A DNA stretch of 64,000 bases from NCBI GenBank assembly GCA_945889085.1, contig CAMDBM010000002.1:9745-73744 (forward strand), given 5' to 3'. Numbering within the stretch: the first letter of the stretch is position 1; each line of letters starts with the position of its first letter. The notes below the pieces were generated by a model. That model was not told the origin of the DNA. It ran no database searches and saw only the letters and a list, made by a program, of their open reading frames with translations. Positions 8,007 through 51,427 of the stretch are shown piece by piece. The position numbers and the translations under genes are program-made. This stretch comes from Ferrithrix thermotolerans DSM 19514. Lineage in GTDB: Bacteria; Actinomycetota; Acidimicrobiia; Acidimicrobiales; Ilumatobacteraceae.

Positions 8007-8021
8007 TTCTGTGTCGTCGGT

Positions 8022-9494: not shown

Positions 9495-9582
9495 TGACCC
9501 GGACGGTAGTGCTCCGGTGCGACATGTGCCACAGTCCCGCCCCTAGACACGGCCAGATGGCACCCGTAGCGTCTGTCCCGCT

Positions 9583-10437: not shown

Positions 10438-10511
10438 CCGAGGCTTACCCGTTGCCGGTAAGGGCAGATCCCCGGTTGCGTTGACGAGTACGTGCCGGAC
10501 GTCTGCTCCCC

Positions 10512-10535
10512 GGGTTGACGGACTAGGGTCAACCC
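10512..10535 (+). promoter_or_regulatory. 8-bp perfect inverted repeat (candidate operator or hairpin) upstream of the IOR gene
   Basis: GGGTTGAC-N8-GTCAACCC, about 70 nt upstream of ATG 10607. Confidence 0.3.
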
Positions 10536-10606
10536 CTGAAGAGGGTCTCGCCCAGATCCGCAGTGTCGGCAGTTCGCTGGCGGGAACCGGGTGTGAAGGG
10601 ACGATC

Positions 10607-14128: not shown

Positions 14129-14138
14129 CTGCGGCGAG

Positions 14139-14690
14139 TTATTTGGCAGTCTCGAACCGGTGGTAGTCCGTGGTGTCCATGATGGAGCCGGGGCCCTCGG
14201 TGGGCAGCATCTCGAAGTAGTTGAGTGCGCCGTTCACGTCGTGCTCCCAGACCTCCTTGGGCACCTCGTAGAGCACCTCGATGCCGTTGCCGTCGGGGTC
14301 GCTGATGTAGACGCTGTGGGTCATGCCGTGGTTGCCGCGAATGATGAACTTCACCCCGATGTCCTGGATGTGCTCGATGCGCGCTAGCCATTCCTCCCGT
14401 GTCGGGTAGCCGATGGCAACGTGGTTCAGGCCGACCTTGGCCTCGGGGAAGAAGCCGCCCCACGGTTCAGCGGGCTCGAGGGTGCCCTTCCCCTGGACGA
14501 GCGCGATGTCGTGATGCGAGTCTGGGTGGCCCTGGTAGAACCACATCGTGGAGCCGGCGAGCGGTCCGGTGAGTTCACCGTTGCGCGTGAAGCCGAGGAC
14601 CTCGGTGTAGAACCGATGCGACGCCTCGATGTCCCGGACGGTGAGGACGAGGTGATTGACGGACGGGCCGTACGGGTGTGCAGAAGGCAT
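14139..14690 (-). CDS. VOC-family (glyoxalase / extradiol dioxygenase-like) protein
   Basis: VNHLVLTVRDIEASHRFYTEVLGF and a second beta-alpha-beta-beta-beta module LNHVAIGY. Confidence 0.8.
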   Translation of the reverse strand: MPSAHPYGPSVNHLVLTVRDIEASHRFYTEVLGFTRNGELTGPLAGSTMWFYQGHPDSHHDIALVQGKGTLEPAEPWGGFFPEAKVGLNHVAIGYPTREEWLARIEHIQDIGVKFIIRGNHGMTHSVYISDPDGNGIEVLYEVPKEVWEHDVNGALNYFEMLPTEGPGSIMDTTDYHRFETAK

Positions 14691-14735
14691 GACAGTTCCC
14701 CAGATCGAGAAGATTTCCCGCTTCGGAGACTACGA

Positions 14736-14776
14736 GATCGCCCGAGATGGGGCAACGGTTCGAGGCTCGGGCGATC
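14736..14776. promoter_or_regulatory. 11-bp perfect inverted repeat in the divergent VOC / hpaB-like promoter region
   Basis: GATCGCCCGAG-N19-CTCGGGCGATC. Confidence 0.3.
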
Positions 14777-14878
14777 CGTCCCGCTGCAGAGCGAGTGGCT
14801 GCGTGGTTACGCTGATTGGGTGGGCAGGCAAGCACAAGGACCACCGCCGTGCTGGGCCGATGCGACCGGGGGATCAAC

Positions 14879-16441
14879 GTGACAGCAACCGAGAGTCAGC
14901 CGACCTCGTCCACCGCACGTCGTGCGTACACGGGCGCCGAGTACATCGAGAGCCTGCGCGATGGCCGCACGGTGTACTTCCAGGGCGAGCGGGTCAAGGA
15001 CGTCACCACGCACCCGGCGTTCCGCAACAGCGTGAGGTCCATCGCGACGATGTACGACGCGCTGCACGACCCAGCCACCCGGGACATCCTCACCACCGAG
15101 ACCGACACCGGGAGCGGCGGCCGTACGCATCGGTTCTTCAAGGTTCCCCGGACGGTGGAGGATCTCATCGGCGGCCGTGACGCCATCGCCTGCTGGCAGC
15201 GCCTCGTCCATGGATGGATGGGTCGGGCGCCCGACTACAAGGCGGCGTTCCTCGGCACCCTCGGTGCCAACAGCGAGTTCTACGCCCCGTACCAGGCCAA
15301 CGCGCTGCACTGGTACAAAGAGACGCAGGAGACCGTTCCGTACTGGAACCACGCAATCGTCCACCCGCCCGTGGACCGCAACCTGCCCGCGGACGAGTCG
15401 GCGGGGGTTTGCATGCACGTCGAGAAAGAGACCGACAACGGCCTCGTCGTGTCGGGTGCGAAGGTGGTCGCAACCGGCTCGGCACTCACGCACTACAACT
15501 TCATCGCCCACTACGGACTGCCGGTGAGGCACAAGGCGTACGGAATCGTGTGCACAACGCCGATGGACGCACCCGGGGTCAAACTGATCTGCCGCAACTC
15601 CTTCGAGTTCCAGGCGGCTGTTACCGGCAGCCCATTCGACTACCCACTGTCGAGCCGGCTGGACGAGAACGACTCGATCCTCGTGTTCGACAAGGTGCTC
15701 ATCCCGTGGGAGAACGTCTTCATGTACGGGGCCGACGAGGCAACGTCGTGGGCGGGTGGTTCGGGCTTCACTCCGCGGTTCACCCTGCACGGGCTCACAC
15801 GCCTCTGCGTCAAACTCGACTTCATCATCGGAGTGCTCGCCAAGGCCCTGCGCGCCACCGGCGCGAGCGAGTTCCGCGGCGTTCAGGCAAACCTCGGCGA
15901 GTGCATCGCAATCCGCAACATGTTCTGGGCGATGAGTGACCAGATGTGCAAGTCGCCGACCATGTGGGCGAACGGCTGCTTGCAGCCGAACCTCGAGACC
16001 GGGATGTCGTACCGGGTCATGGCCCCGTGGCTGTACCCGAGGATCAAGGAGATCATCGAGCAGGTGGTCGCATCCGGCCTCATCTACGTGAACTCGAACG
16101 CTGCCGACTTCAAGTCCGACGAGATCCGCCCGTACCTCGAGAAGTACGTCCGTGGGTCCAACGGCATCGGTGCCCTCGACCGCGTGAAGATCATGAAACT
16201 GCTGTGGGACTGCATCGGCAGCGAGTTCGGCGGTCGCCACGAGTTGTACGAGCGCAATTACTCGGGAAGCCACGAGGACGCACGAATCCAGTGCGTAGGC
16301 GTGGCCAGCATGACCGGGACCCTCGAGATGATGGAGGGCATGGCGGATCGCGCGATGTCTGAGTACGACCTCGACGGCTGGACCTCGGACAAGTTCCTGA
16401 ATCCCACAGACGTCAGCGCCATCGGCAAGTTCAACTTCTGA
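14879..16441 (+). CDS. 4-hydroxyphenylacetate 3-hydroxylase family flavin-dependent monooxygenase (oxygenase component)
   Basis: HpaB-family N-terminus [32 protein letters not shown], with length and C-terminal region typical of the family. The start is uncertain (GTG 14879 or the upstream 14816). Confidence 0.85.
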
Positions 16442-16475
16442 TTCCGGGCCGCATGATGGCTACGGTCGGGGGCAC

Positions 16476-17450
16476 ATGAGGTTCATCGTCTACGGAACAG
16501 GTGCGGTCGGGGGCCCGATCGCCGCAAAGCTGGTGCAGAACGAACACGACGTGGTTGCGGTGGCCCGCGGCGAGCATGCCACGGCGATGGCGCGGGATGG
16601 GTTGGTGCTCGAGACGCCCACGGGTGCGGTTCACGTGCGGCTGCCGGTGGTCACGGACCCGGGCGACATCGTGTTCGGCGTGGGGGACGTCGTGATCATC
16701 TCGGTGAAGTCCCAGGACCTCCCCCCGGTACTCGAGCGGCTGGCCAGGACGATGCCGTGGGGTACGCCGGTGGTGTGTGCCCAGAACGCAGTGTGCAACG
16801 AGCCGAGTGCGCTCCGGCTCTTCCCCAACGTGTACGGGATGAACGTGATGCTCATCGGCACGCACCTGAAGCCCGGGGTGGTGCAGGTGTATACGTCGCC
16901 GCTCAACGGGATCCTCGACATCGGTCGGTACCCCAACGGGGTGGATGACACGAGCCGTGCGATCTGTGCTGCGCTCGAACAGTCGGGATTCGAGTCCGCG
17001 GCCCGGCCGGACATCATGCGGTGGAAGTACGGCAAGCTGCTCATGAACCTCAACAATGCGATCGAGGTGGCCGTCGGCCCCGGGTTCGGGTACTCCGAGG
17101 CCTACCGACGCGTGCGTGCAGAGGGGGAGGCGTGCCTGAGTGCCGCCGGGATCGAGTACGTAGGACGCGACGAGGATGTCGCCCACCGTGGGGACACACT
17201 CCGCTTCCACCTCATCGAGGGGCAGGACCGCGGCGGCGGGTCAACGTGGCAGAGCTTCCTGCGCAACCGCGGCAGCGCCGAGACCGACTATCTCAACGGT
17301 GAGATCGTGCTCCTCGGCCGGCTGCACGGAATCCCGACCCCCGCGAACGCGTTCCTCCAGCGCCTGATGCACCGCATGCTCGTCGACGGACCCGCCCCGG
17401 GATCGATGAGCCACGACGAACTCGTGGCGGCTATGGATGCCGACCAGTAG
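16476..17450 (+). CDS. ketopantoate reductase (ApbA/PanE) family oxidoreductase
   Basis: N-terminal Rossmann MRFIVYGTGAVGGPIAAKL. MRWKYGKLLMNLNNA matches the family's conserved KxxxN region. Confidence 0.8.
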   Translation: MRFIVYGTGAVGGPIAAKLVQNEHDVVAVARGEHATAMARDGLVLETPTGAVHVRLPVVTDPGDIVFGVGDVVIISVKSQDLPPVLERLARTMPWGTPVVCAQNAVCNEPSALRLFPNVYGMNVMLIGTHLKPGVVQVYTSPLNGILDIGRYPNGVDDTSRAICAALEQSGFESAARPDIMRWKYGKLLMNLNNAIEVAVGPGFGYSEAYRRVRAEGEACLSAAGIEYVGRDEDVAHRGDTLRFHLIEGQDRGGGSTWQSFLRNRGSAETDYLNGEIVLLGRLHGIPTPANAFLQRLMHRMLVDGPAPGSMSHDELVAAMDADQ

Positions 17451-17545
17451 TCGGTCGCATTGGTCGGTCCGTCGGTTGCGTACCGAGTGGCACGGGGGGC
17501 GAAGTCGTTCCTGACAGTTGTGGCGCCGTCGCCTAACGTGAGCAC

Positions 17546-18034
17546 GTGAGCAACTTCGATACCGCGCGCTTCCGTCAGGTCCTCGGACACTTCCCCACCG
17601 GGGTCACGATCGTGACGGGCCTGTCTGCCTCGGGGGAGCCGGGCGGGCTCACCATCGGTTCGTTCTGCTCGGTCTCGCTCGAGCCGCCGCTCGTGGGGTT
17701 TCTGCCGGCCATCAATTCGCGCAGTTGGCCAGACATCGCTCCCGGCGGATCGTTCTGCGTGAACATCCTCGGCGCCGAACAGGGAGAACTGTGCTGGAGA
17801 TTCGCCAAGGACTCAGAGGGTCGCTTCGACGGCATCGACTGGCAGAAGGCCCCGAGCGGCTCGCCCATCCTGCCGGGTGCAATCGGGTGGATTGACTGCA
17901 GCACGGAGCAGGTCATTGAGATGGGTGACCACTGGTTCGTGCTCGGCCGTGTGGGGGATCTGCACTGCGAGGACGACGTGAGCGACGCCATGACCTTCTT
18001 CAAGGGCAAGGTCTGCAGCGTCAAGATGGGATGA
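17546..18034 (+). CDS. flavin reductase family protein (FMN-binding split barrel)
   Basis: FRQVLGHFPTGVTIVT...GLTIGSFCSVSLEPPLV is typical of HpaC/NADH:flavin reductase components. Confidence 0.85.
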   Translation: MSNFDTARFRQVLGHFPTGVTIVTGLSASGEPGGLTIGSFCSVSLEPPLVGFLPAINSRSWPDIAPGGSFCVNILGAEQGELCWRFAKDSEGRFDGIDWQKAPSGSPILPGAIGWIDCSTEQVIEMGDHWFVLGRVGDLHCEDDVSDAMTFFKGKVCSVKMG

Positions 18035-36751: not shown

Positions 36752-37099
36752 ATGGACCGCAAAGCACTCATCGCCAAGAAGCGCAAGGACAAGGGCTTCA
36801 CGCTCATCGAATTGCTCATCGTCATCGCCATCCTCGGCATCCTCAGCACCATCGTCGTGCTGTCGGTCCGTGGTATCCAGGACCGTGGCCAGTCGTCTGC
36901 CTGCTCCAGCGACAAGAAGTCGCTCGAGACCTCTTACGAGACGGCTCTCGCCAACGGCCTCGACCTGACCACCCCGGTCGCCGCCGACGTGTCCAGCTCG
37001 CTGGTCGCCAACGGCTACCTGCACGCCGAGTCGGCCTGGTACAACGTCGGCTCAGACGGATCCGTGACTGTCAAGACGGGCGTCACGGCCTGCACCTGA
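36752..37099 (+). CDS. type IV (major) pilin with prepilin-type N-terminal cleavage/methylation motif
   Basis: GGAGGG RBS and leader MDRKALIAKKRKDKG|FTLIELLIVIAILGIL (class III signal peptide, E5). 115 aa, with a Cys pair. Confidence 0.85.
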   Translation: MDRKALIAKKRKDKGFTLIELLIVIAILGILSTIVVLSVRGIQDRGQSSACSSDKKSLETSYETALANGLDLTTPVAADVSSSLVANGYLHAESAWYNVGSDGSVTVKTGVTACT

Positions 37100-37217: not shown

Positions 37218-37934
37218 TCAGCGCACGAGTTCGATACGGCGGCCTTGATCGTCCCATTGAGGGTCCTGAGGAAGCCGGGTGATTGCTTTGCCGGCGATCC
37301 TGCGGGCTGTCCAGAGCAAGGCTGCTGCGTTGAGGAGATGACGGAGCGAACTACCTCGAGGTGGCTGGGCCATCGCAAGCGCACGCAGTCCCGGAAGGCG
37401 GTCCTGGAGCAGGGCCAAGCGTTCCGCCGGACCATCGCTCCAGAAACTTGAAGTGGACGCGGCTCGGTCGGCGTTGAGGAGCAGGATGCTGAGGTCGGGG
37501 TTCCCGGAAAATATCCGGCGCTGGTGATACGCCTGAACCTCGGTGTCAACCTCGCGGATCCACCGGAAGCGTCGGTAGGCGAGCGGGGTCAGCCATGGCT
37601 CGAGCGCCTGCGCCTTTGTCATATTGGGCGCGTACAGGGCATCCCGGCTCGGCACCCGTGGGATCGCGATGCGTTGGGGCCAGCCCAACAGGTCCCGGGC
37701 ATCGTGGTCGCACGAGCGGTATCCCCCGAACGGTTTGTCCGGGAGGCCGATCGGTGCGTCGATCACGATGTAGAGGAACGACGGGCGATAGTCGATCACG
37801 TCGGCAAGCGACTCGAGGACAAAGGGCTCCTCGGGCACGATCGTGGCGGTGAAGAGTCGGGCCGGCTGGACCAACCATCCGCCCGGACACGGCACCACAC
37901 CGGCGAGCGGTTTGTAGGGGAGCGGCGGAGGCAT
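37218..37934 (-). CDS. DUF429-like protein (predicted RNase H-fold)
   Basis: VVPCPGGWLV...VIDAPIGLP...YRSCDHDARDLLG resembles the DUF429 pattern. It starts 20 nt after the pilT stop on the same strand. Confidence 0.55.
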   Translation of the reverse strand: MPPPLPYKPLAGVVPCPGGWLVQPARLFTATIVPEEPFVLESLADVIDYRPSFLYIVIDAPIGLPDKPFGGYRSCDHDARDLLGWPQRIAIPRVPSRDALYAPNMTKAQALEPWLTPLAYRRFRWIREVDTEVQAYHQRRIFSGNPDLSILLLNADRAASTSSFWSDGPAERLALLQDRLPGLRALAMAQPPRGSSLRHLLNAAALLWTARRIAGKAITRLPQDPQWDDQGRRIELVR

Positions 37935-37954: not shown

Positions 37955-39220
37955 TCAGCGCCGGCCGCCGAGGGGCACCTGACCCGCCCGCGCGAACCGG
38001 GGGTCCTGGATCTCCTTCGGGTACTGGCTCAGGCTGATCGCCTCTTCATAGGTGATGAGCCCGGCGCTCAGCACCGCGTTGATCGAGGACTCGAGCGTCT
38101 GCATGCCCTCGGCGGCACAGGTGGCAATCACGTTGCGGATCTGGCGAGTCTTTCCCTCACGGATGAGGTTGCGCACGGCGTCGTTGGCGAGCAGCACCTC
38201 GTACGCGCCGACACGGCCCTTCCCGATCCGCTTGGCGAGCCGCTGGCTCACGACGCCCTGAAGCACCGAGGACAACTGCGTCTGGATCTGGTCCCGGCGC
38301 TCGGCCGGGTAGGAGTCAACGATGCGGTCGATGGCCTGGGCGGCATCGTTGGTGTGCAGCGTGGCGAAAACGAGGTGACCGGTCTCGGCGAGGGTGAGGG
38401 TGATCGAGATCGACTCGAGATCCCGCATTTCGCCGAGGAGGATGACATCCGGGTCCTCGCGCAGCGCCGCACGCAGCCCATCCTCGAAGGTGCGCACGTC
38501 GGTGCCAACCTCGCGCTGGCTGACAAGGGCAGTGCTGTGGCGGTGCACGTACTCCACTGGGTCCTCGATCGTCAGGATGTGACACGGACGGTTCTGGGCG
38601 ATGCGGGAGATCAGAGCGGCTTGGGTCGTGGATTTACCCGAACCCGTCGGCCCCACGAACAGTACGAGACCGTACGGAAAGTTCATCACCCGCTGGACAC
38701 CGGCCGGAACGCCCAATTCCTCGAGCGTGGGGATGTAGCTCTGGATGGCGCGAAAGACCGCAGAGGGGTAGCCGCGCTGGTGGAACGCGTTGACACGAAA
38801 GCGCGAATCGTCGTCGAGCGCTACCGAGTAGTCCACCTGACGATCGTCGATGAACCGCGTCCAGAGCTCGTCGTTGAGCGAGGAGCGCAGCATTCGGTTG
38901 AGGCGGTCTGCGTCCATGGGCGGCTCGCCCTCGATAGGGAGCAGCGTCCCGTCGATGCGTGCCGAGGGAGGAACCTCAACGGTGAGGTGGAGGTCCGAGC
39001 CGCGGTTGGCGATGAGGTAGTTGAGCAGCCGCTCCAGTTCGGGGTCCAGTTGGTCGCCCGTTGGGGCCAACGACGGCTTGGGGGGTGTCCAGCTGTCGAG
39101 GGAACGATCCGGCTGCGGGGTGCCCGCGGCTGCCCGGTAGAGCAGCGAGAAGTCGTCCTCGGGCGCGTCGACAATAGGTCGGCCCGGCTGATGGGCGTGG
39201 GGTTGTCCGTCAGCGTTCAT
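37955..39220 (-). CDS. pilT: type IV pilus retraction ATPase PilT (with a ~65-aa N-terminal extension)
   Basis: AGGAG RBS, SDLHL, Walker A GPTGSGKSTT, Asp box, Walker B ILLGEMRD, and His box ATLHTNDA. Confidence 0.9.
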   Translation of the reverse strand: MNADGQPHAHQPGRPIVDAPEDDFSLLYRAAAGTPQPDRSLDSWTPPKPSLAPTGDQLDPELERLLNYLIANRGSDLHLTVEVPPSARIDGTLLPIEGEPPMDADRLNRMLRSSLNDELWTRFIDDRQVDYSVALDDDSRFRVNAFHQRGYPSAVFRAIQSYIPTLEELGVPAGVQRVMNFPYGLVLFVGPTGSGKSTTQAALISRIAQNRPCHILTIEDPVEYVHRHSTALVSQREVGTDVRTFEDGLRAALREDPDVILLGEMRDLESISITLTLAETGHLVFATLHTNDAAQAIDRIVDSYPAERRDQIQTQLSSVLQGVVSQRLAKRIGKGRVGAYEVLLANDAVRNLIREGKTRQIRNVIATCAAEGMQTLESSINAVLSAGLITYEEAISLSQYPKEIQDPRFARAGQVPLGGRR

Positions 39221-39243: not shown

Positions 39244-40008
39244 GTGTTCGTGACCTTGCTCGTAGTGCTCGGCGTTCTTTCCGGCTCGTATCTCGGCGTT
39301 GTTGCCGACCGTCTGCCCCGTGAGGAGCGCACCAGCACCGGCCGCTCCCATTGTGACGCATGCGGGGCGGCACTCCGGTGGTTCGAGCTCATCCCGATCC
39401 TGTCGTGGCTGGTGCAGCGGGGTCGCTGCCGTCGGTGCGGGGCGTCCATCACGTGGGCGCCGCTCCTCATGGAGATCCTGACGGGCACCCTGTTCGGGGC
39501 AATGGGGGCGCGGTTCGGTTTCCACCTCGAGACCGCTGCCTTCGTGGTGCTGGTGGGCGTGCTGATGCCGCTCGGCCTGATTGACCTGCGGACCAAGCGT
39601 CTTCCCCGTCAATTGATCTACGTGGCCGGCGCGCTCGGAGCGCCACTGCTCGTTGTTGCGGCGCTGATCGCGGACGAACCACAACGGATCTGGTGGGCGG
39701 CGGTCGGTGGCGGTGGGGCCCTTGCGTTCTTCCTCGCGCTCTATCTCGGTTGGAGCGGCGGTATGGGTGACGGCGATGTTCGTCTCGCCGGACTGCTCGG
39801 CATGTACCTCGGGTGGATCGGGCTCTCGCACGTGCCGATCGGTCTGTTCCTCGGCTTCCTGCTGGGCGCCGTCGTCGGGGTGGCGTTGATCGCCCGCAAT
39901 GGCGGTGATCGCAAGACGGCCATCCCGTTCGGTCCGTTCATGGCGATGGGCGCCGTGGTCACGGTTCTCTGGGGCCGGAACATCGTGCATCTCTGGCTGG
40001 GGCACTGA
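39244..40008 (+). CDS. pilD: prepilin peptidase (A24 family)
   Basis: CDAC...CRRC zinc-binding pairs, catalytic Asp motifs GMGDGDVRLAG and IPFGPFMAMG. Polytopic. Confidence 0.9.
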   Translation: MFVTLLVVLGVLSGSYLGVVADRLPREERTSTGRSHCDACGAALRWFELIPILSWLVQRGRCRRCGASITWAPLLMEILTGTLFGAMGARFGFHLETAAFVVLVGVLMPLGLIDLRTKRLPRQLIYVAGALGAPLLVVAALIADEPQRIWWAAVGGGGALAFFLALYLGWSGGMGDGDVRLAGLLGMYLGWIGLSHVPIGLFLGFLLGAVVGVALIARNGGDRKTAIPFGPFMAMGAVVTVLWGRNIVHLWLGH

Positions 40009-40040: not shown

Positions 40041-42071
40041 TCATTGCACTTCCCAGGTGTTCACGGCGTACGCGCCGTTCTGGTTCACCTGCACGATGGC
40101 GATCGAGGACTCTCGCCCGCTCGAGCGTGACTCGATCCGGAACACCCGTTGGACGACGGCTTCGACAAAGCCGATGGGAACGGTTTGCAGGCCGGTTGCC
40201 CGGGCATCGGTCACGTCGAACTGGGCAGCGAGCACCCCACTGGTCATGCGCACATCCAGCCCGAAAGGGTTGTTCACCCGAAGCCGACCCTGGGGGATGC
40301 TCACATAACCCGGAATGAGGATGCTCGACGATGACGAGTTCGCGAGATCGATCTCGACGACAGCGGTTGGCTGGTACAGCGCGCCGACGACAGGGGGAGT
40401 GCTCGGGATCGTTGATGCCCCGGCCGTTGGGGTCACCGCGGTGCTTGCTGCTGAGGCCACCGAATCACCGGCGGCGTTCGTGGCGACCACCGTGAACGTG
40501 TACGCCGTCCCATTCGTCAGGCCGACGAAGTCGCACTGCAGCGTAGGAGGGGGTGAGGTGGACGCCGACAGGGTGCACGCGAGGCCTTCCGGCGACGAGG
40601 TGACGCGGTAGGACGTCACCGGAGCGGTCGTTGTGGCTGCAGCGGTCCAGGACACGCGGGCTGCCCCGGAGTAGGCAACAGCGGTCGGCGTGGCAGGCGC
40701 AGTCGGAACGGCCAGCGCGGTGCTCGATACTGCCGGGGTGATGGCCGACGAGGCCGACGAGGCTGACGAGTCACCGACCACGTTGCTGGCGACGACCGAG
40801 AAGGTGACGGCCGAACCGTTCGCGAGGCCGGTGACAGCGCACGCCGTGGACCCAGAGGTGGTGCAGGTTGCTCCCGATGACGAGGTGACGCGGTATCCGG
40901 TGATCGAACTGCCGCCCGACGAGGGTGCGGACCACGACACGACCGCCGCGCCGTTGTAGGCCGTGGCGACGACGCCTGTGGGCTTGCTGGGGACTGAGGG
41001 CTTGGCGTGAAAGTTCGATGGCGTGTAATCCGCGCTGGTGGCGCTCACCGGGTCGACGTTGCCGACCAGCGAATAGGGGATACTCAACGCTCCGCTCCCG
41101 CTCCACGTGAGATCCTGGGCTGACTGCGACGGGGTGCCGTTCACGGACGCGATACTCAGTCCGGCCGAGGTGTCCGTGTCAGCCTCGGCGGCGCTCACGT
41201 ACCGTGAGTTGAGCACGAGGGAGGGTCCGAGTGAGGCCGTATTCGTCACCAGCAGGCGGCCGTTCTTGCCGAAGATCAGGGTGCCGCCCAGGCCGCTGAT
41301 GTTGTGCGTGACCGGGGCGTCGACTGCGTAGAACGCAGCATCCTGATCGGTCGAGCATCCCTCCGTGGCCCCGAGGCCGACGACAACCGACGCTCCGTTC
41401 TGAACTGTCAGCGTGTTCTCGAAGTAGTAGATGCCCGACGCGAAGTAAGTCGGTCCGATGAGGGTGACGGCGTCGGTGTAGGTGCCCGGGAAGTACACCG
41501 TGCAGGTGGTGAAGCCCGCCGGCATCTGGAAGCCACCGGGGGATCGCCGGTCGAGGGAGTGGATCGGCAGGTTGGGCAGCCAGATGCGGTTGGTCTCGGA
41601 GAACTGGGTGGTTGCGGTTCTCCACTCCGAAGCCGACTCGGGGTTGGCCGGCGAGTAGCGCGCCCCGGTCAGAGCGCTCGGGATCGCCGACCCGACCTGG
41701 GTGGCGACGAGGCCGTAGCGCAGTTCGTTCGAGTCCTGTGCAGTCTGGTAATCGAGGAAGTAGCAGCGCGTGGTCACGCTCTTGCCGCTGGTCGTGGTGC
41801 CCGCAAGCGTCACCGCCACTGTTGGTCCGGCGTTGCCGCACGTGCGATACAGCGCTGCCGGATCGGCGAGGGCAATCCGCGTTCCTGCCTTGACCGCCTC
41901 GAGGCGGGCGGTCTTCGCGCTCAGCACGGAGTTCGACCGCAGGACGGTCTGTTGGTAGGAAAGAAGTGGGATGATCACCAGCGACACCACGATGGTGAAG
42001 ATCATGACGAGGAGGAGTACCGAACCTTCGTCCTCGTTCGGTCGCTTCCGGCGCCGGGGGGAGGACACCAT
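40041..42071 (-). CDS. large pilus-associated protein with a PilX_N-like hydrophobic N-terminus and two FN3-like repeats
   Basis: The start ATG overlaps the upstream stop (TGATG). N-terminus DEGSVLLLVMIFTIVVSLVII. There are two tandem ~90-aa repeats of the form VSW...Y.V.S....C.....C...GL.NG.A.TF.V.A.N..GDS (nt 40428..40991). Confidence 0.6.
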   Translation of the reverse strand: MVSSPRRRKRPNEDEGSVLLLVMIFTIVVSLVIIPLLSYQQTVLRSNSVLSAKTARLEAVKAGTRIALADPAALYRTCGNAGPTVAVTLAGTTTSGKSVTTRCYFLDYQTAQDSNELRYGLVATQVGSAIPSALTGARYSPANPESASEWRTATTQFSETNRIWLPNLPIHSLDRRSPGGFQMPAGFTTCTVYFPGTYTDAVTLIGPTYFASGIYYFENTLTVQNGASVVVGLGATEGCSTDQDAAFYAVDAPVTHNISGLGGTLIFGKNGRLLVTNTASLGPSLVLNSRYVSAAEADTDTSAGLSIASVNGTPSQSAQDLTWSGSGALSIPYSLVGNVDPVSATSADYTPSNFHAKPSVPSKPTGVVATAYNGAAVVSWSAPSSGGSSITGYRVTSSSGATCTTSGSTACAVTGLANGSAVTFSVVASNVVGDSSASSASSAITPAVSSTALAVPTAPATPTAVAYSGAARVSWTAAATTTAPVTSYRVTSSPEGLACTLSASTSPPPTLQCDFVGLTNGTAYTFTVVATNAAGDSVASAASTAVTPTAGASTIPSTPPVVGALYQPTAVVEIDLANSSSSSILIPGYVSIPQGRLRVNNPFGLDVRMTSGVLAAQFDVTDARATGLQTVPIGFVEAVVQRVFRIESRSSGRESSIAIVQVNQNGAYAVNTWEVQ

Positions 42072-44473
42072 CAGTCCCGTCTCACCGTCAGCGTGCACGA
42101 GATAGCGGCGTTCGCAGGCACACGGACCCGGATGCCTGTCCACTGACTCTGCCCCGCAATAGCGATCGAGGTATAAGACAGCGCAGTGATCCCCGCCTTG
42201 CAGGCCCACGAAACGGGCTCGTAGCCGTTCAGATCCGAGTAGTTCTGCGGGATGATGTCGACATCGACGTACTGCCCGTTGGGGATCGTGAAGTCGAAGG
42301 TGCCGGTCGTGAACTGTTGGTTCGTGGTGACGACGCGTGGTTCTACGTTCAGCGCTGCACCACTGGAGTCGGTAACGGTGGAGTTCTCGTAGCGGAACGG
42401 GTCGGCGACGGCCGCGGAGCCGACTTTGGTCTGGAGCGTGAGCGTGCCGCCGCACACGCCGAGCGACACCGCCTGCATCGCCGTGGCGAACTGGGACCAC
42501 TGGGGCAGGACGTACATGTCCGCAAGCTGGGTGTTGGTGTAGGAGGTTCCGTCGAATGCGGCAGGCGTGCCGTAGTCGTTCCCGGCGATGAGCCTCGCGA
42601 GGATGACGCTGTTCGCAGTGGTCGCGGTGACCGCCGGGTCGTACGCCTCGTACGGCGGGCTGTTGTACACCTTGGTGGAGCGGTACTCGGTGGTCGCCCC
42701 CGAGGAGCGTGAGCCCGTCCACATCTCCCAGTCCGGCCCTGCCGCATAGGTCTTGGTGACCGCCCGGTAGGTGGAATTGCCTGAATTCGCCTGATACTCA
42801 ACGGTCGATACCGGGCTGGTGGTGACGACCACCTTCGCCCCGTCCGTAGTGCTCGTATTGATCGGGTTCTCGACGGTGAGGTACTCGGCCTGCGTCACGT
42901 TCGTCCAGCCGAGGTCCCGGCGGCGGTTTGTCGCTGTCGTTGCATAGGTGTTGTAGTTCACCCAGGACCAGAACTGGGTGGTGGTGTTCCGCGCCTGGTA
43001 GCGGAGTTGGTACGACGTGATGTCCCGCACGTACGAGTACGAGCCCCGCTCCCACTGGGTGCGGTAGCCGGCACCCGGGTCCACGATCCAGTTGGAGGAC
43101 CCGGAGATGCCGGTGCCGACACCGACCCCGATGATGCGCGCACTGGTGCGGAACTCGTCTGCCAGGAATCGTGCACGGTCGAATGCGACCTGGTTGTAGG
43201 CGCTGCCGTTCGCTGTCGGCCACGGAGCACCCAGCGCGGCCGGGTCGGTGGGCAGCACACCCGGCGACGTGCGCCGCACGAGACGGTCGAAGGTGGGCAC
43301 GCCGTCGGTAAAGAACACGATGGTCTTGGGCACCAGACCGGTCGTGGTGGCATCGGACTGGCGCAGGGTCCGGAACAGCGCCTCCTCCCAGTTCGTGCCG
43401 CCGTTGGGACTGGATGACCACGTGCCCTGCAGAGTGTCGATCGCGGTCAGCAGGGTAGAAACCTCGCTGTCCTTGGTCATGTCCCAGTACTTCTGCCAAG
43501 ACGTCGTGCCGAGCACGTGCGAGTAGGTGTGGAATCCGATGATCTGGATCTTCACCGGCGTGCCCACGAGCGTCTGCACAAACTGCTTGACGCCGGCACG
43601 AACCTGGGTGATTGACGTTCCGATCGAGTTGGACTCGTCGACGATCACTGTGATGTTGCCGCCGCAACGACTGCGCACGTCGGCAAAGGACGGGGCGCCC
43701 TGAAGACTTTTCGAGTCGATATTCGAACGGACGGCGCCACCTGCGGTGATGCTGATCTGGTTGATACCGCCGCCCGGGCCGGCCGCGCTGCCGCCGCCGT
43801 TGATCGTGACAACGACGCGGTTCGAGTTCTTCAGGTCGGCGACGGTTGCGACCTGGGTTTCGTTAATTGCATCCGCTGCGAGTGGCTGGCTCACCGTGAT
43901 GACCCAGTCCGGGTTCGTGCAGTTCAGGGTGCTGCCCACCGACGAACAGCCCGAGCCATTCGCCACACCCGCCACGAACGTTTCTCCACCCGGCGGCCTG
44001 GGCAGGTTGCGGAGCACGGTAGTGGTCTCGCAGTTCCAGGCCCCTGCGTCGATGGTGCTGCACTTCACACGCCGAAGGGAGTACGTGCCGTCCGCGGCGG
44101 GGAAAAAGTTGTACGACACCTTGGTGATCGCCGTACCAGTCGCCCCCCTGGTACTCCATGAGAGCATGATCACGTTCGAGCCCTCGGCGAGGTTCACCCC
44201 ATCGCACACGGTCGAGCCGCACGGTGTCGACTCCGGCTTGGTATCCACCGACTCGGCCGACGACAGGTCAGCAGGCAGCCACAGGCTCACGTTCTGCTCG
44301 GAACGGGCAACCTCGGTTCGGCCTTGGGTGTTGCCGATCTGTCGGAAGACGATGATCACAGCAGCCGCAACAACCGAGCCAACGATCCCCAGCACGGCAA
44401 CGGAGACGAGCAACTCCACCAGCGTCATGCCCCTGTCCGGGTTCCTGCCACTATTCAGTCGACGTCTAGACAT
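42071..44473 (-). CDS. modular type IV pilin: prepilin N-terminus fused to a vWA (MIDAS) domain and a large C-terminal region
   Basis: DRG|MTLVELLVSVAVLGIV (E5). The MIDAS triad is VDESNS, a conserved T in GGTNWEEAL, and FFTDG (about nt 43093..43660). 800 aa. Confidence 0.75.
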   Translation of the reverse strand: MSRRRLNSGRNPDRGMTLVELLVSVAVLGIVGSVVAAAVIIVFRQIGNTQGRTEVARSEQNVSLWLPADLSSAESVDTKPESTPCGSTVCDGVNLAEGSNVIMLSWSTRGATGTAITKVSYNFFPAADGTYSLRRVKCSTIDAGAWNCETTTVLRNLPRPPGGETFVAGVANGSGCSSVGSTLNCTNPDWVITVSQPLAADAINETQVATVADLKNSNRVVVTINGGGSAAGPGGGINQISITAGGAVRSNIDSKSLQGAPSFADVRSRCGGNITVIVDESNSIGTSITQVRAGVKQFVQTLVGTPVKIQIIGFHTYSHVLGTTSWQKYWDMTKDSEVSTLLTAIDTLQGTWSSSPNGGTNWEEALFRTLRQSDATTTGLVPKTIVFFTDGVPTFDRLVRRTSPGVLPTDPAALGAPWPTANGSAYNQVAFDRARFLADEFRTSARIIGVGVGTGISGSSNWIVDPGAGYRTQWERGSYSYVRDITSYQLRYQARNTTTQFWSWVNYNTYATTATNRRRDLGWTNVTQAEYLTVENPINTSTTDGAKVVVTTSPVSTVEYQANSGNSTYRAVTKTYAAGPDWEMWTGSRSSGATTEYRSTKVYNSPPYEAYDPAVTATTANSVILARLIAGNDYGTPAAFDGTSYTNTQLADMYVLPQWSQFATAMQAVSLGVCGGTLTLQTKVGSAAVADPFRYENSTVTDSSGAALNVEPRVVTTNQQFTTGTFDFTIPNGQYVDVDIIPQNYSDLNGYEPVSWACKAGITALSYTSIAIAGQSQWTGIRVRVPANAAISCTLTVRRD

Positions 44474-44921
44474 CGCTCTTCACCACCTGGATGCTTCGCT
44501 GTACCCGGCCGTCCGGGCTTCTTACGGTGACACTGACGCGTTGCACGAGGAGGTCGGCGAGCGCCCCAGCGGGGCAGGCGGGCGAACTTGTTGGTCCGGC
44601 GGTCCAGGTGCCGGGCGACGTCGGGTCGATCGCCGGTTGGTAGTACTCCTGGGCGACCGTGGCCGCGGAGGCTGCCCAGCCCTCGGTCTGCACGGCGGCC
44701 TGCGCATACGCGCTGTAGTCGCAGGATTTCGGTGCACGGTTGACGCGGTCGGCGGCGTTCACGATGACGGTCTCGACCCGCGCACCCGATCGGGTGACGG
44801 CCGAAGTTGTCACCGAGGTGATGACCGCCGTGAGCACGGCGATGATCACGATGCCCATGAGCATGATCACGATCACGACCTCGACGAGCGAGAAGCCCTC
44901 GTCGAGCTGTCGGGGCCTCAT
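44466..44921 (-). CDS. minor pilin (prepilin-type N-terminal cleavage/methylation domain)
   Basis: GGAGGAG RBS, DEG|FSLVEVVIVIMLMGIV (E5), 151 aa. ATGA overlap with pilC. Confidence 0.75.
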   Translation of the reverse strand: MRPRQLDEGFSLVEVVIVIMLMGIVIIAVLTAVITSVTTSAVTRSGARVETVIVNAADRVNRAPKSCDYSAYAQAAVQTEGWAASAATVAQEYYQPAIDPTSPGTWTAGPTSSPACPAGALADLLVQRVSVTVRSPDGRVQRSIQVVKSDV

Positions 44922-46135
44922 CCTGTCTCCTCCGCCTTGAACCCGTTGAGGACGCCGTACATGGCAGAGACGAGGGCGATAGCAACGAAACCGACCGCCG
45001 CACCGACCATCAGGATGGTGAACGGCTCGAACATCGAGGTAAAGCGACGGATCTTCACCTCGAGTTCGCGGTTGAAGTACTCCGACGCAGAGGCCAACTG
45101 GTCGTCGAGGGTTCCGGTCTCCTCGCCGACCTTCATCATCTGGCGGGCAGCGCCGGGGAACAGGCCGGTCTCGATGAGGGGGCGGGCGAGCCCGGCCCCG
45201 CTCACCATTGCCTGGCGCGAGATCTCGAGTTTTTCCTGGAAAATGAGGTTCCCGGTGGACTTGGTGGTGACCTCCATGGCCTCGGGCAGCGAGACACCGG
45301 CCTTGGTCATTGTGGACAGGATGAGGCAGAAGCGCTCGAGGATCGAGTACTGGATGATCTCGCCGAGCACGGGGAGTTTCAGGATCATCTTGTCCTTGGC
45401 CCGCCTACCGGCCGGGGTCATCGCCATCCAGATGAGCATCAGCACGAACATGAACACGAACCCGACCGGGATATAGAAGAAGTCGGTGAGGAACCCGGTC
45501 ATCCCCAGGAGCAGTTTGGTGGGGAGCGGGAGGTCCGAGCCGAGTTCGTCGAACAGCGCCTTGAACTGGGGGAGCACCACCACGGCGAGGATCCCGATCG
45601 TGATGATCGCGAGGCCGAAGACGACCGCCGGATAGACGAGGGCGGCGATCACCTTGGAACGGGCAGTGATCTCCCGGTCGAGGTACGAGGTGAGCTGGTC
45701 GATGGTCTCGTCGAGGTTGCCCGTGAGCTCGGCAGACTTCAGCACACCGAGGTAGTACTTCGGGAACGCCTCGGGGTGCATGGCAGCGGCATCTGCGAAC
45801 GTGGAGCCCCCGCGCAGCTTGTCCGCAAGGTCGGCGAGCACGCGGCGCAGCACCTTGTCGTGGGCCTCATCGGCGATCGTCTCGAGGGAGTCGATGATGG
45901 GGATGCCGGCCCGCAGGAACACGGCGAGCTGACGAGAGAAGTGCATGAGCTCACGCTTTTTCAGCTTCTCGCTGGTGAGTTCGAGGTTCAGCCGGCTCTT
46001 GGGCTCGCCAATCTTGATCGGGAACAGTGATTTGTCCTGCAGCCACGAACGGACGTCGCCGATGGTGTCGCGCTTGAGCGAACCCTTAACGGTATTACCG
46101 GTGGCGTCGACGGCGACGTAGTGGAACTTCGGCAT
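44918..46135 (-). CDS. pilC: type IV pilus platform protein PilC (GspF family)
   Basis: Two T2SSF repeats, three TM segments, and N-terminus MPKFHYVAVDATGNTVKG. Confidence 0.9.
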   Translation of the reverse strand: MPKFHYVAVDATGNTVKGSLKRDTIGDVRSWLQDKSLFPIKIGEPKSRLNLELTSEKLKKRELMHFSRQLAVFLRAGIPIIDSLETIADEAHDKVLRRVLADLADKLRGGSTFADAAAMHPEAFPKYYLGVLKSAELTGNLDETIDQLTSYLDREITARSKVIAALVYPAVVFGLAIITIGILAVVVLPQFKALFDELGSDLPLPTKLLLGMTGFLTDFFYIPVGFVFMFVLMLIWMAMTPAGRRAKDKMILKLPVLGEIIQYSILERFCLILSTMTKAGVSLPEAMEVTTKSTGNLIFQEKLEISRQAMVSGAGLARPLIETGLFPGAARQMMKVGEETGTLDDQLASASEYFNRELEVKIRRFTSMFEPFTILMVGAAVGFVAIALVSAMYGVLNGFKAEETG

Positions 46136-46143
46136 GGACTACC

Positions 46144-47886
46144 TCAGCCTGCGTAGAGCGTTCGGACGACTTCGCCGATGGTGCTCACGTCGTTCTCCAC
46201 CAGCGTGAGTGCCTCGTCCACGAGGGTCCGCATGCCCTGGGACACCGCAAGGCGACGCAGTTCCTCCTGCGTGGCCCAACCAACGATCAGCCGTCGCAGT
46301 TCGGGCGTGACGCGCAGCAGTTCGTACACGCCGATGCGGTCGCGGTAGCCGGTGCCGGCGCAGAAGGTGCAGCCCGCCCCGTGCCAGAACTGGCTCTTCG
46401 GGTTGCGGCCCTCACGGTTCCACACAGCGATCTCCTCGGGCCCGGGCTCGTAGGGCTCCTTGCAGGCGTCGCAGATACGACGGAGGAGACGCTGGCCGAT
46501 GACGGCAACGACGGAGGACGCGATGAGGAACGACTCGATGCCCATGTCGAGCATGCGGTGGAGCGCCGCCACCGAGTCCGTGCCGTGGAGCGAGGAGAGC
46601 ACGAGGTGGCCGGTGAGCGCAGACTGCACGGCGATGCGGGCGGTGTCTGCGTCGCGAACCTCTCCCACGAGGATCACGTCCGGGTCCTGGCGCAGGATTG
46701 CCTTGAGGCCCTGCGCAAAGGTGAGCCCGGCCTGCTCGTTGGTCTGGATCTGGTTGATGCCGGGGAACACGTACTCCACCGGGTCCTCGATCGTCATCAC
46801 GTTCTTGCCGCCGTCGTTGATGGCACGCAGCGTGGCGTAGAGCGTCGTGGTCTTTCCGGCACCCGTGGGCCCGGCGCAGATGACCATGCCGAATGGCGCA
46901 TGGATGAGCTTGGACCACTCCTCGTAGGTGGCGCCCGGCATGCCGAGTTGCCTCAACTCCAGCGCAGCGCGGCTCTTGTCGAGCAGTCGCATGACGACCT
47001 TCTCGCCGAACACGGTTGCCAGCGACGACACGCGGACGTCCATGTCCCTGCCGTCGACCGTCATCGAGAACTGCCCGTCCTGGGGCCTGCGACGTTCCAC
47101 GATGTTCATGCCACCGAGGATCTTGTACCTGCTCACGAGGGCAGCGTGTGCCGACAGCGGGAGCGTGAAGGTATCGACCATGTTGCCGTCGATGCGGAAT
47201 CGGATGCGGATGTGGTCGTTCATCGGCTCGACGTGTACGTCCGATGCGCGGTCGCGCAGGCCCTGGGCGATGATCCGGTTTGCGATCTGGACGACGGGGG
47301 CGTCTTCGTCGTCGCTCTGCTGCGATGCGGCGAGCAGGGCCTGGGTGGAGTCGCTGGCTTCGAAGGCTCTGCTGAGGGCGTCGATCTCGGCGTCGGCCCG
47401 GTACATCCGGTCGAGCGTGTTGGAGATGTCCTGCTCCATCGCCACCTTGAACACGACGGTCCCGGTGAACTTCGCGGCGACTGCTGCGCGCGCTGTCTGG
47501 CACGGGTCTGCGATCGCCACGTGGGCGCCGTTCGCGTCAGCCGTGAGTGGCAGGCACTTCAGCAGGCGACAGGTGCGCTCGTCGAGAAGCGAGACGGCGT
47601 CCTCGTTGGGAGTGGTCTGGCGCAGGTCCAGCATCTCGAGGCCGTGGAAGCCGGCCCAGACACTGACCATGTTGGAACGGTTGGCCCCGCGACGCTCGGT
47701 CTTGAAGAGCAGGGCGATCAACTCGGACTCCGACTGCGGTTCGGCACCCTTGGCGATGGCGAGGTCGGCCGGCGACACGGCCTCGGCGGCCACGAGAGCC
47801 TGAGCAAGTTCGTCAACCTGACCGTCGCGGGGACGAATTGCTTCGACCGCCGTCGCAGCCGTCTGTGAGCGCCCGCGAAATGCCAT
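46144..47886 (-). CDS. pilB: type IV pilus assembly ATPase PilB (GspE family)
   Basis: T2SSE_N domain, Walker A GPTGAGKTTT, Walker B ILVGEVRD, and tetracysteine CDAC...CTFC. Confidence 0.9.
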   Translation of the reverse strand: MAFRGRSQTAATAVEAIRPRDGQVDELAQALVAAEAVSPADLAIAKGAEPQSESELIALLFKTERRGANRSNMVSVWAGFHGLEMLDLRQTTPNEDAVSLLDERTCRLLKCLPLTADANGAHVAIADPCQTARAAVAAKFTGTVVFKVAMEQDISNTLDRMYRADAEIDALSRAFEASDSTQALLAASQQSDDEDAPVVQIANRIIAQGLRDRASDVHVEPMNDHIRIRFRIDGNMVDTFTLPLSAHAALVSRYKILGGMNIVERRRPQDGQFSMTVDGRDMDVRVSSLATVFGEKVVMRLLDKSRAALELRQLGMPGATYEEWSKLIHAPFGMVICAGPTGAGKTTTLYATLRAINDGGKNVMTIEDPVEYVFPGINQIQTNEQAGLTFAQGLKAILRQDPDVILVGEVRDADTARIAVQSALTGHLVLSSLHGTDSVAALHRMLDMGIESFLIASSVVAVIGQRLLRRICDACKEPYEPGPEEIAVWNREGRNPKSQFWHGAGCTFCAGTGYRDRIGVYELLRVTPELRRLIVGWATQEELRRLAVSQGMRTLVDEALTLVENDVSTIGEVVRTLYAG

Positions 47887-50229: not shown

Positions 50230-50341
50230 GACGACTGTCACCCGATGCCCCCCGCTCCGGGGGGGCCGCTAGCCTTTCACGCGATCCGGGGAGCACTCAG
50301 GCGTTCCGGTGCACAGGACGGCCATGGGAGGTGTCGAGCGA

Positions 50342-51427
50342 ATGGAACCACGGTCCCTGAAGCGCTGGACGCCGGCACTCATTGCCGCAATCGTCCTCGG
50401 GGTAGTCGGCATCGGTGCTGCTGTCGGTAGCGGGAACTCGGCCAAGTCCGATGGCTCCGAGAGCACCGACCCGTCCCTTCTCCCGGTCACCGAGGAGCCC
50501 TCCGATGTCATCGACTCCGGTGTCGTCGACTCGCTCCCCGTTGTTGCTACCGCACCGGTGGTTACCGCCAAGCCAAAGACACATCTCAAGCGCACCATGA
50601 AGAAGGGGTCCAAGGGAACCGCCGTCAAGCGTCTCCAGCAGCGACTCATTGATCTGGGCTACGACCCGGGCGACGTGGACGGCAGTTTCAACTCCAAGAC
50701 CCGCGCCGCCGTCTGGGCGTTCGAGAAACTGGTGATGCGCGTGCCCCCTTCGAAGGTGAGGGGACAGGTCAACGACGAGATGTGGCTGCGGATGCAGGAC
50801 AACCTTGTGGTGAAACCCAAGCGACCGAAGGGCTCTACGGTTCACCTCGAGGTGTACCTGCCGGAGCAGGTTGCGGTACTTTTCGAGAAGAACAAGGTTC
50901 GGCTCATCACCCACATCTCCTCGGGAACCGGGAAGTGGTGGGAGGAGCCCGTCACGATTGACCCGGGCGAGGACGGCAACCTGAGCGGCAACAAGCCGCT
51001 CGCTGCGATCGTCCGTGGCATCTCAATCACGCCGGGCGGTACGTACCGCTTCTACCGACGTTACGTGGACCAAAGCACCGGGGGATGGCGAGAAGGCCGC
51101 CTCGGCCGGATGTACCAGCCGGTGTACTTCAACAAGGGACTCGCGGTACACGGCGCGAACGAGGTGCCGTCGTACCCGGCGTCCCACGGTTGTGTGCGCA
51201 TCCCCATGCACATTGCCGAGTACTTCCCGGACCTCGTGAAGAACGGTGACCAGGTGTTCGTGTGGGACGGCAAGAAGCAGCCCGAGTACTACGGGGCCCA
51301 GCCCCCGAAGGCGGACTCGATCAGCAGGGCGCCCACCACCACGGTAGCGACCACCAGCACGACGGTGAAGAAGACCACGACGACGACGACGTCGACGACA
51401 ACGACTACGACTACGACGTCTGCCTGA
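50342..51427 (+). CDS. L,D-transpeptidase with a peptidoglycan-binding domain and a Thr-rich tail
   Basis: TM anchor, PG_binding_1 (GTAVKRLQQRLIDLGYDPGDVDGSF), YkuD catalytic HG...SHGCVR, and a C-terminal poly-Thr. Confidence 0.85.
   Translation: MEPRSLKRWTPALIAAIVLGVVGIGAAVGSGNSAKSDGSESTDPSLLPVTEEPSDVIDSGVVDSLPVVATAPVVTAKPKTHLKRTMKKGSKGTAVKRLQQRLIDLGYDPGDVDGSFNSKTRAAVWAFEKLVMRVPPSKVRGQVNDEMWLRMQDNLVVKPKRPKGSTVHLEVYLPEQVAVLFEKNKVRLITHISSGTGKWWEEPVTIDPGEDGNLSGNKPLAAIVRGISITPGGTYRFYRRYVDQSTGGWREGRLGRMYQPVYFNKGLAVHGANEVPSYPASHGCVRIPMHIAEYFPDLVKNGDQVFVWDGKKQPEYYGAQPPKADSISRAPTTTVATTSTTVKKTTTTTTSTTTTTTTTSA

Follow-up and report, generated by a model that had tools for sequence, protein, structure and literature searches.

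The closest described counterpart of the protein reported here is PilB of Streptococcus sanguinis, a modular pilin that carries a von Willebrand factor type A (vWA) domain whose metal ion-dependent adhesion site (MIDAS) is needed for adhesion (PMC8179133). Together with PilA, which lacks the glutamate at position 5 (Glu5), and PilC, it has been modelled as a complex at the tip of the type IV pilus (PMC8179133, PMC9934059), and piliation in S. sanguinis requires its minor pilins (PMC9934059). The combination of N_methyl and vWA modules (IPR012902-IPR002035) was the fourth commonest modular-pilin architecture in an InterPro survey, with 52 (+7) proteins (PMC8179133 Dataset S1), and vWA domains recur among tip adhesin pilins (PMC8088525). 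Here we describe a gene for an 800-amino acid (aa) pilin with a vWA domain, hereafter the vWA pilin, in a 64,000-nucleotide (nt) stretch of Ferrithrix thermotolerans DSM 19514 (assembly GCA_945889085.1, contig CAMDBM010000002.1, positions 9,745 to 73,744). This whole stretch is called the window, and all coordinates refer to it. By analogy with S. sanguinis PilABC, we think it fairly probable that the protein is a modular minor type IV pilin in a tip-located, metal-dependent complex that acts in both adhesion and priming. It is a more elaborate modular vWA type IV pilin and extends current ideas on a class already described in 2021. Because its architecture already ranks fourth in that survey, it is less unusual than an initial annotation of the window, made from the sequence alone, had implied.

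The gene (42071..44473, minus strand) starts with ATG and is a single uninterrupted open reading frame (ORF). Translation places the prepilin motif (NPDRG followed by MTLVELLVSVAVLGIV) at residues 11-31, and the MIDAS motifs ITVIVDESNS, GGTNWEEAL and IVFFTDGVPT at residues 274-283, 358-366 and 385-394, respectively. The protein comprises the following parts.

44429..44473, minus strand: leader peptide, residues 1-15 (MSRRRLNSGRNPDRG), basic and ending in Gly-1, with a prepilin-peptidase cleavage site predicted from the sequence
44258..44428, minus strand: mature N-terminus and long alpha-1 helix, residues 16-72, the filament-assembly helix with E20 (N_methyl, TIGR02532, AlphaFold2 helix 18-72)
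43874..44257, minus strand: globular pilin module, residues 73-200, a four-stranded antiparallel sheet (99-157) with conserved Cys pairs
43667..43843, minus strand: Gly-rich segment, residues 211-269 (VVVTINGGG...GGGINQISITAGG...PSF...RCGG), the most conserved stretch of the family, joining the pilin and vWA modules
43082..43666, minus strand: first part of the vWA domain, residues 270-464 (beta1-beta5), with the MIDAS DxSxS at 279-283, T360, D390 and a long loop at 393-426 (Pfam VWA, Foldseek)
42623..43081, minus strand: beta-rich insertion, residues ~465-617 (~150 aa), within the vWA domain between strand 5 and helix 5, rich in aromatics and Thr
42449..42622, minus strand: last part of the vWA domain, residues 618-675, with helix 621-629, strand 653-656 and helix 659-674, ending at the invariant C674
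42074..42448, minus strand: C-terminal beta-sandwich, residues 676-800, CnaB/prealbumin-like, with the conserved Cys pair C758/C793

Domain matches were judged against curated cut-offs (Pfam N_methyl 21.2, VWA 23.8 and VWA_2 27 bits; NCBIfam TIGR02532 16.3 bits), and conservation was read from an alignment of 54 homologues with 40-83% identity. An AlphaFold2 (AF2) model of the full protein was built with the 54-sequence alignment and had a mean predicted local distance difference test score (pLDDT) of 81.8; a model of residues 458-800 reached 90.6. At the N-terminus, N_methyl scored 27.3 bits over residues 11-35 and TIGR02532 (prepilin cleavage/methylation) scored 24 bits, and both L18 and Glu+5 (E20) are invariant, so the canonical prepilin motif with Glu5 that had been read from the sequence is borne out. 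The leader is short and hydrophilic, with Gly at -1 and Met as the next residue, as expected of a type IV pilin. The AF2 model has a 55-residue alpha-1 helix followed by a sheet with strands at residues 99-110, 113-125, 131-141 and 147-157 (pLDDT 80-91), and C85, C138 and C148 are invariant in this module. The predicted structure thus has the two elements of a pilin fold, a long N-terminal helix and an antiparallel sheet. Residues 44-272 gave no Pfam match at E ≤ 10.

The position of the start codon matters for this assignment. Public gene calls of the identical protein begin at Met16 and give a product of 785 aa without the leader. The precomputed Pfam domains for that call do not include N_methyl, so the public start hides the prepilin signal and leaves the protein labelled only as vWA. 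A Met16-type start miscall is also found in 14 of the 54 aligned homologues. All of the remaining 40, which are called from the upstream start, keep the leader end D-x-G before M-T-L-x-E. The upstream ATG at 44473 overlaps the stop of the preceding 151-aa pilin gene by 8 nt and restores this conserved leader.

A search of ~5.8 billion proteins returned 193 relatives, many with 98-100% query coverage, and an exhaustive HMMER scan of 1.84 billion cluster representatives gave 670 matches, 137 of them below 1e-30. When one genome per species was scanned, 135 loci were found, essentially all in metagenome-assembled genomes (MAGs) of Acidimicrobiales (Ilumatobacteraceae and relatives), including two complete MAG chromosomes. 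Four independent assemblies (loci L080-L083) share the identical vWA pilin and the order of the genes around it, and residues 10-480 form a strongly conserved core across the family. Two loci (L073 and L076) come from MAGs labelled 'uncultured Bifidobacterium sp.', where the other matches are Acidimicrobiales; this label is probably a binning or taxonomy error.

These relatives bear on the possibility, raised with the initial annotation, that an assembly or sequencing frameshift has artificially joined a small pilin gene to a vWA gene to give the 800-aa ORF. The public calls that start at Met16 are the sole oddity in its favour, and we found no other support. Against it stand colinear full-length relatives at the 135 genome loci and among at least 193 database proteins, the identical protein in the same gene context in the four assemblies, and AF2 domains that are continuous and confident. 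Because colinear relatives occur at so many loci and the identical protein recurs in independent assemblies, the comparison of sequences leaves a fusion with practically no probability, and we regard it as excluded.

Pfam VWA scored 40.4 bits (E 4.9e-10, residues 273-395) and VWA_2 28.4 bits, and VWA also matched 50 of the 54 homologues; a single ORF therefore carries above-threshold matches to the Pfam equivalents of both IPR012902 and IPR002035. The five residues of the MIDAS (D279, S281, S283, T360 and D390) are all present and invariant in the alignment, in agreement with the complete MIDAS described before. The range of ~43093..43660 given for it was right about the motifs and only approximate in its coordinates; the exact codons lie between 43304 and 43639 (DxSxS at 43625-43639, T360 at 43394-43396 and D390 at 43304-43306). 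Judged by its invariance among the homologues, the set of Glu+5 and five MIDAS residues is far beyond chance.

Structure prediction also gave the expected vWA fold. Foldseek matched the full model with probability 1.0 to >40 solved vWA/I-domains (TMt up to 0.57). SpaC, a tip adhesin of sortase pili, came first (E 3e-8); the vWA domain of an Aeromonas adhesin, PilB of S. sanguinis (7ba2_A, E 1.3e-5) and the type V pilus tip protein Mfa5 were also among the top matches. The alignment with PilB, itself a pilin-plus-vWA protein, covered 475 columns at 11% identity. Two invariant cysteines, C270 and C674, flank the domain. In the A1 and A3 domains of von Willebrand factor a disulfide joins both domain ends, and by analogy it is reasonable to suppose that a C270-C674 disulfide may tie the ends of this vWA domain together.

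The initial annotation had ended the vWA domain near residue 395 and left a further ~340 residues without a family. Both points need revision. The domain instead runs to ~675 around a nested insertion (~465-617), and the rest of the protein is a CnaB/prealbumin-like sandwich (676-800). Helix 5, strand 6 and helix 6 were assigned from DSSP of the AF2 models and from the alignment of paralogues without the insertion, not from Pfam: when the insertion alone was deleted in silico the VWA match became no longer than before, and when loop 396-423 was deleted as well it reached profile position 139 of 174 at most. In the paralogues, which have 598-647 aa, the alignment covers residues 15-~465, breaks off and resumes at ~613-798, and the MIDAS is kept. 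Residues ~465-617 are identified as an insertion because these natural paralogues lack them and continue directly at ~613.

The insertion is the least conserved region of the protein, and its length varies from 105 to 249 aa among homologues. It is predicted with pLDDT >90 in both the full-length and the 458-800 model. Searched in isolation at E ≤ 10, it had no meaningful Pfam family (Imm-NTF2 at 0.066), and a database search with the insertion alone, which has low sensitivity, returned three fragments of the same family and no other protein context. For the C-terminal domain, Foldseek with the 458-800 model matched CnaB2 (8bdw_A, TMt 0.62), Spy0128 (4e-5), PitB and the C-terminal domain of SpaA. 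Weak Pfam matches to SpaA_3/SpaA_2 (prealbumin-like) were seen in 5 of the 54 homologues, and the isolated domain gave a marginal SpaA_2 match (E 0.22). Two intramolecular bonds were considered for this domain and rejected. A CnaB-type isopeptide bond through Lys683, in its first strand, was dropped since this residue is conserved below 90% in the family and is Arg in several insertion-less paralogues, and a Thr-Gln ester bond was set aside since no conserved Gln lies near the last strand.

Compared domain by domain, the predicted head is most like the vWA-plus-CnaB heads of tip adhesins from sortase pili. SpaC of L. rhamnosus (PDB 6M3Y/6M48), the best structural match, likewise combines a vWA/MIDAS head with CnaB-type sandwiches; the global TM-scores are 0.16-0.17, so the likeness holds at the level of individual domains. 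RrgA of S. pneumoniae and GBS104 are also sortase-pilus tip adhesins with vWA heads, and in such adhesins the vWA domain is elaborated by inserted arms. The anchoring is different: sortase tip adhesins have a Sec signal and LPXTG, whereas the vWA pilin has a class III signal and an alpha-1 helix. A sortase-dependent tip adhesin was accordingly among the identities we rejected, as the sequence contains no LPxTG and ends in ...CTLTVRRD with no hydrophobic tail. A TadG-type Tad pseudopilin was another; neither the protein nor its homologues matched a TadE/Tad family in Pfam, and N_methyl was found instead.

Between the pilin and vWA modules lies the Gly-rich segment (43667-43843, minus strand), which can also be written VVVTINGGGSAAGPGGGINQISITAGG...PSF...RCGG. 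At least 90% conservation is seen in 51% of its columns and its length is fixed at 57-60 aa, and it has pLDDT <50 in the AF2 model. Against the PDB it gave a weak match to the Ig-like repeat protein 6xi1 (E 0.0025 summed over four repeats, each ~E 10), a lead and not an assignment. These ~60 residues could form a small spacer domain, or could become folded only in contact with the partner pilins.

The vWA pilin gene forms a three-gene cassette with the genes on either side.

44466..44921, minus strand: upstream gene, a 151-aa minor pilin (QLDEG followed by FSLVEVV) with Glu5 present and weak N_methyl and PilV/GspH matches
40041..42071, minus strand: downstream gene, a 676-aa fibronectin type III (FN3) protein (NEDEG followed by SVLLLVMIF) with a class-III-like signal without Glu5

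In nearly every one of 79 loci the genes of this trio, for a small pilin, the vWA pilin and an FN3 protein lacking Glu5, are found in synteny, which upholds the earlier placement of the gene between a minor pilin and an FN3 protein. In nearly all loci the small pilin gene directly precedes that of the vWA pilin and keeps its prepilin signal, and the N-terminal motif of the 676-aa protein is conserved as R-D-x-G followed by S/A-x-L-x-L-V in ~40 loci. That downstream neighbour had been called a PilX_N/FN3 protein. The FN3 half of this call stands, with two FN3 domains (Pfam fn3, two stretches, E 8.9e-21); the PilX_N half does not, since Pfam PilX_N was absent even at E ≤ 10 and only the motif, G followed by SVLLLV with no Glu5, looks PilX/GspK-like. 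The ~400 central residues of the same protein have no family and look beta-helix-like to the eye, and this neighbour may in its own right represent a new type of modular tip pilin. Flanking of the vWA pilin by a minor pilin with Glu5 and an FN3 protein without it fits a tip complex.

Coding regions in and before the cassette overlap: pilC and the 151-aa pilin gene by 4 nt (44918-44921), the 151-aa and vWA pilin genes by 8 nt (44466-44473), and the vWA pilin and FN3 protein genes by 1 nt (42071), where the TGA of the former and the ATG of the latter have one base in common. These overlapping stop and start codons suggest translational coupling and a fixed stoichiometry of the three cassette proteins.

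Several genomes contain two cassettes, and in four of them the cassettes are in tandem. The second tandem cassettes (L011 at 7535-18000, L016, L032 and L038) encode a shorter vWA pilin of 598-647 aa without the nested insertion and a larger Glu5-less partner of 720-930 aa. This arrangement suggests alternative pilus tips. Two further loci of this kind, L045 and L052, lie together on one contig.

How does the cassette compare with S. sanguinis PilABC? Like PilB (PDB 7B7P/7BA2), the vWA pilin has a class III signal with Glu5 and, after its pilin module, a vWA module whose MIDAS is complete, and in both cases the host is monoderm and the operon contains two other minor pilins, one Glu5-less and one with other extra modules. 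PilABC has also been proposed to act both as a tip-displayed metal-dependent adhesin and in a priming complex (PMC8179133, PMC9934059). The differences are considerable. The vWA pilin is nearly twice as large and its host is an environmental actinobacterium; a conserved ~60-residue segment takes the place of the 9-residue loop that joins the PilB modules; and a ~150-aa nested variable insertion in the vWA domain and then a CnaB-like domain are added. The Glu5-less partner is a small pilin in PilABC and a large FN3 protein here, and the present cassette can be tandemly duplicated. PDB sequence searches with the vWA pilin and a profile of the 54 sequences gave short matches to geopilin alpha-1N and marginal matches to the vWA domains of MIC2; PilB chains were not found by phmmer or with the profile at E ≤ 10 and E ≤ 1. 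We considered orthology with S. sanguinis PilB and set it aside in view of this missing sequence match, the low Foldseek identity and the extra parts of the architecture.

PilY1/PilC proteins share other features with the vWA pilin: a frequent N-terminal vWA domain, an association with minor pilins at the tip, and roles in priming and adhesion (PMC8179133). They differ in that PilY1, which is no pilin, has as its defining feature a C-terminal beta-propeller, and this domain is absent here. PilY1/PilC identity was rejected, as there was no IPR008707-type Pfam match in the protein or its 54 homologues and the C-terminal Foldseek matches were CnaB/Ig-like, with no propeller. A functional analogue of PilY1/PilC fused to a pilin, acting through its vWA domain in priming, in opposing retraction or in sensing surfaces or force, seems rather unlikely to us, and it overlaps with the proposed adhesin and priming role. 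It would be in keeping with the commonest PilY1 architecture, which has an N-terminal vWA (IPR002035-IPR008707; PMC8179133 Dataset S2), and with the vWA-dependent mechanosensing reported for P. aeruginosa PilY1 (PMC8806160, PMC9210963). The conservation of the cassette and of the core at residues 10-480 would also fit a structural or assembly role, as would the requirement for minor pilins in S. sanguinis piliation (PMC9934059). Besides the missing propeller, however, an insertion as variable as this one, and cassettes in tandem whose heads differ, suggest that binding specificity has diversified and do not look like a conserved mechanical sensor.

The window also contains the machinery expected of a type IV pilus, all within 11 kb.

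36752..37099, plus strand: candidate major pilin, 115-aa precursor (KDKG followed by FTLIELLIVIAILG; Pfam N_methyl E 6.2e-11, motif scan)
37955..39220, minus strand: PilT-type retraction ATPase, 421 aa by public call (Pfam T2SSE E 1.5e-47)
39244..40008, plus strand: PilD-type prepilin peptidase, 2 kb from the vWA pilin gene (Pfam A24_N_bact E 1.1e-27, Peptidase_A24 E 2.7e-10)
44918..46135, minus strand: PilC/GspF platform protein (Pfam T2SSF E 1.5e-47)
46144..47886, minus strand: PilB-type extension ATPase, first gene of the operon (Pfam T2SSE E 1.4e-117, N-terminal MshEN E 1.3e-12)

The minus-strand coding regions of pilB, pilC, the 151-aa pilin, the vWA pilin and the 676-aa protein abut or overlap, and a promoter scan found a promoter-like site upstream of pilB at 48027-47999 (10/12 matches). 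The MshEN domain of the extension ATPase is of the type that binds cyclic di-GMP (c-di-GMP) in MshE-type ATPases, which hints at control of pilus extension by a second messenger. Rfam and tRNA scans of the whole window gave no matches; for example, there was no c-di-GMP riboswitch near the pilin genes.

A set of three pilin-like proteins with one large Glu5-less member recalls the tip pilins of the GspK/PilX type (GspHIJK, FimU-PilVWX), in which, as with the 676-aa protein here, the Glu5-less subunit is the largest; GspK has an extra domain inserted into the pilin fold (PMC8179133). The vWA pilin departs from this group in keeping Glu5, its neighbour in having no Pfam PilX_N, and the locus in having three pilin-like genes instead of four. 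The resemblance to GspI/J/K, together with the weak GspH-, PilV- and ComG-type matches of the small pilins, would suit a short pseudopilus for secretion (type II secretion-like) or DNA uptake (Com-like), with the vWA pilin as a tip subunit without a role in adhesion. We rate this as very improbable. The cluster encodes both a retraction ATPase of the PilT type and, in a gene of its own, a major pilin; the ORFs scanned around the cluster included neither a secretin nor com genes; and a vWA/MIDAS head, as the Foldseek matches indicate, is a typical feature of adhesins in three other kinds of pilus (sortase, type V and S. sanguinis type IV).

Taken with the comparison to PilABC, these features allow us to outline how a tip adhesin and priming complex would work, and we infer its steps from leader cleavage, filament incorporation and tip position through complex formation to metal binding, adhesion and the nature of the ligand. 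The PilD-type peptidase encoded 2 kb away would cut after Gly15 and release the basic leader of 15 residues. The vWA pilin would then enter the filament by means of its hydrophobic, Glu5-bearing alpha-1 helix and its small pilin sheet, and its bulk (~85 kDa) would confine it to the pilus tip. There it would assemble with the 151-aa Glu5 pilin and the 676-aa Glu5-less FN3 protein, the latter as the topmost, first-incorporated subunit, as has been argued for GspK, PilX and S. sanguinis PilA (PMC9934059). The trio would both prime filament assembly and display the adhesive head. In that head, the intact MIDAS would hold a divalent cation and capture an acidic group of a ligand, and the CnaB-like domain would serve as a strut. 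Loop 393-426 and insertion 465-617 would flank the MIDAS face and tune specificity; we place them there because the loops after parallel strands 4 and 5 of a canonical vWA domain emerge on that face. Extension by the PilB ATPase and retraction by PilT would allow the cell to attach to, and pull on, particles, surfaces or other cells.

Several points weigh against this proposal. A literature search found no experimental data on any member of the vWA pilin family, and the host is a free-living freshwater or soil actinobacterium, for which no specific ligand can be proposed. The connector at residues 211-269 is the most conserved part of the protein and yet has no confident structure, so a picture of pilin, linker and adhesin leaves one essential feature unexplained. 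Sequence homology to S. sanguinis PilB is undetectable beyond the generic vWA signature; because of this, the vWA pilin, although it would work like PilB, is probably an independent graft and not its orthologue. Finally, the cassette lies >8 kb from pilB, pilC and pilD in most genomes and is linked to them only in some lineages, so the linkage to this machinery is not universal.

The last of these points would also suit a protein that uses its class III signal only as a signal-anchor and acts at the membrane or envelope surface outside any filament. Archaea have class III signals on such non-pilus proteins, for example sugar-binding proteins. This is quite improbable in the present case, where the protein retains both a full-length alpha-1 helix and the pilin sheet, and Glu5 does not vary. 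In nearly all loci the vWA pilin gene has a pilin-like gene on either side, and the product of one of the two lacks Glu5, like tip subunits; in the window the genes overlap by their start and stop codons behind pilB-pilC. In a monoderm, moreover, a membrane-anchored head would presumably sit beneath the wall.

If the tip adhesin and priming complex is correct, the cassette would provide a compact three-gene example of an adhesive pilus tip in a monoderm, for comparison with PilABC, GspHIJK and PilVWX-PilY1. The heads found in nature, which may have or lack the insertion, vary in its length from 105 to 249 aa and in some genomes come in tandem cassettes, could help to dissect how vWA adhesins gain their specificity. 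The likeness of heads across type IV and sortase pili is also noteworthy. As a tentative and doubtful extension, the vWA pilin might be an evolutionary chimera, a type IV pilin stem with a sortase-type head (vWA, nested arm and CnaB-like domain). The Acidimicrobiales would then have duplicated and diversified a minimal three-subunit tip cassette into exchangeable tips, with segment 211-269 as a new docking or force-bearing element that folds only in the complex. Our literature search returned no account of this vWA pilin and nothing on the type IV pili of Actinobacteria, Acidimicrobiia in particular; type IV pili are essentially unstudied in these bacteria, which are abundant in freshwater, marine and soil habitats.

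Two further genes in the window were noted. A DUF429 gene (37218-37934, minus strand) lies between pilT and the major pilin gene; its position is kept in the four assemblies with the identical vWA pilin (L080-L083), and it may be part of the pilus cluster. On the plus strand at 50309-51427, an L,D-transpeptidase (YkuD and PG_binding_1) has a long Thr/Ser-rich tail (TTTVATTSTTVKKTTTTTTSTTTTTTTTSA) that may be O-glycosylated or serve as a wall-spanning linker.

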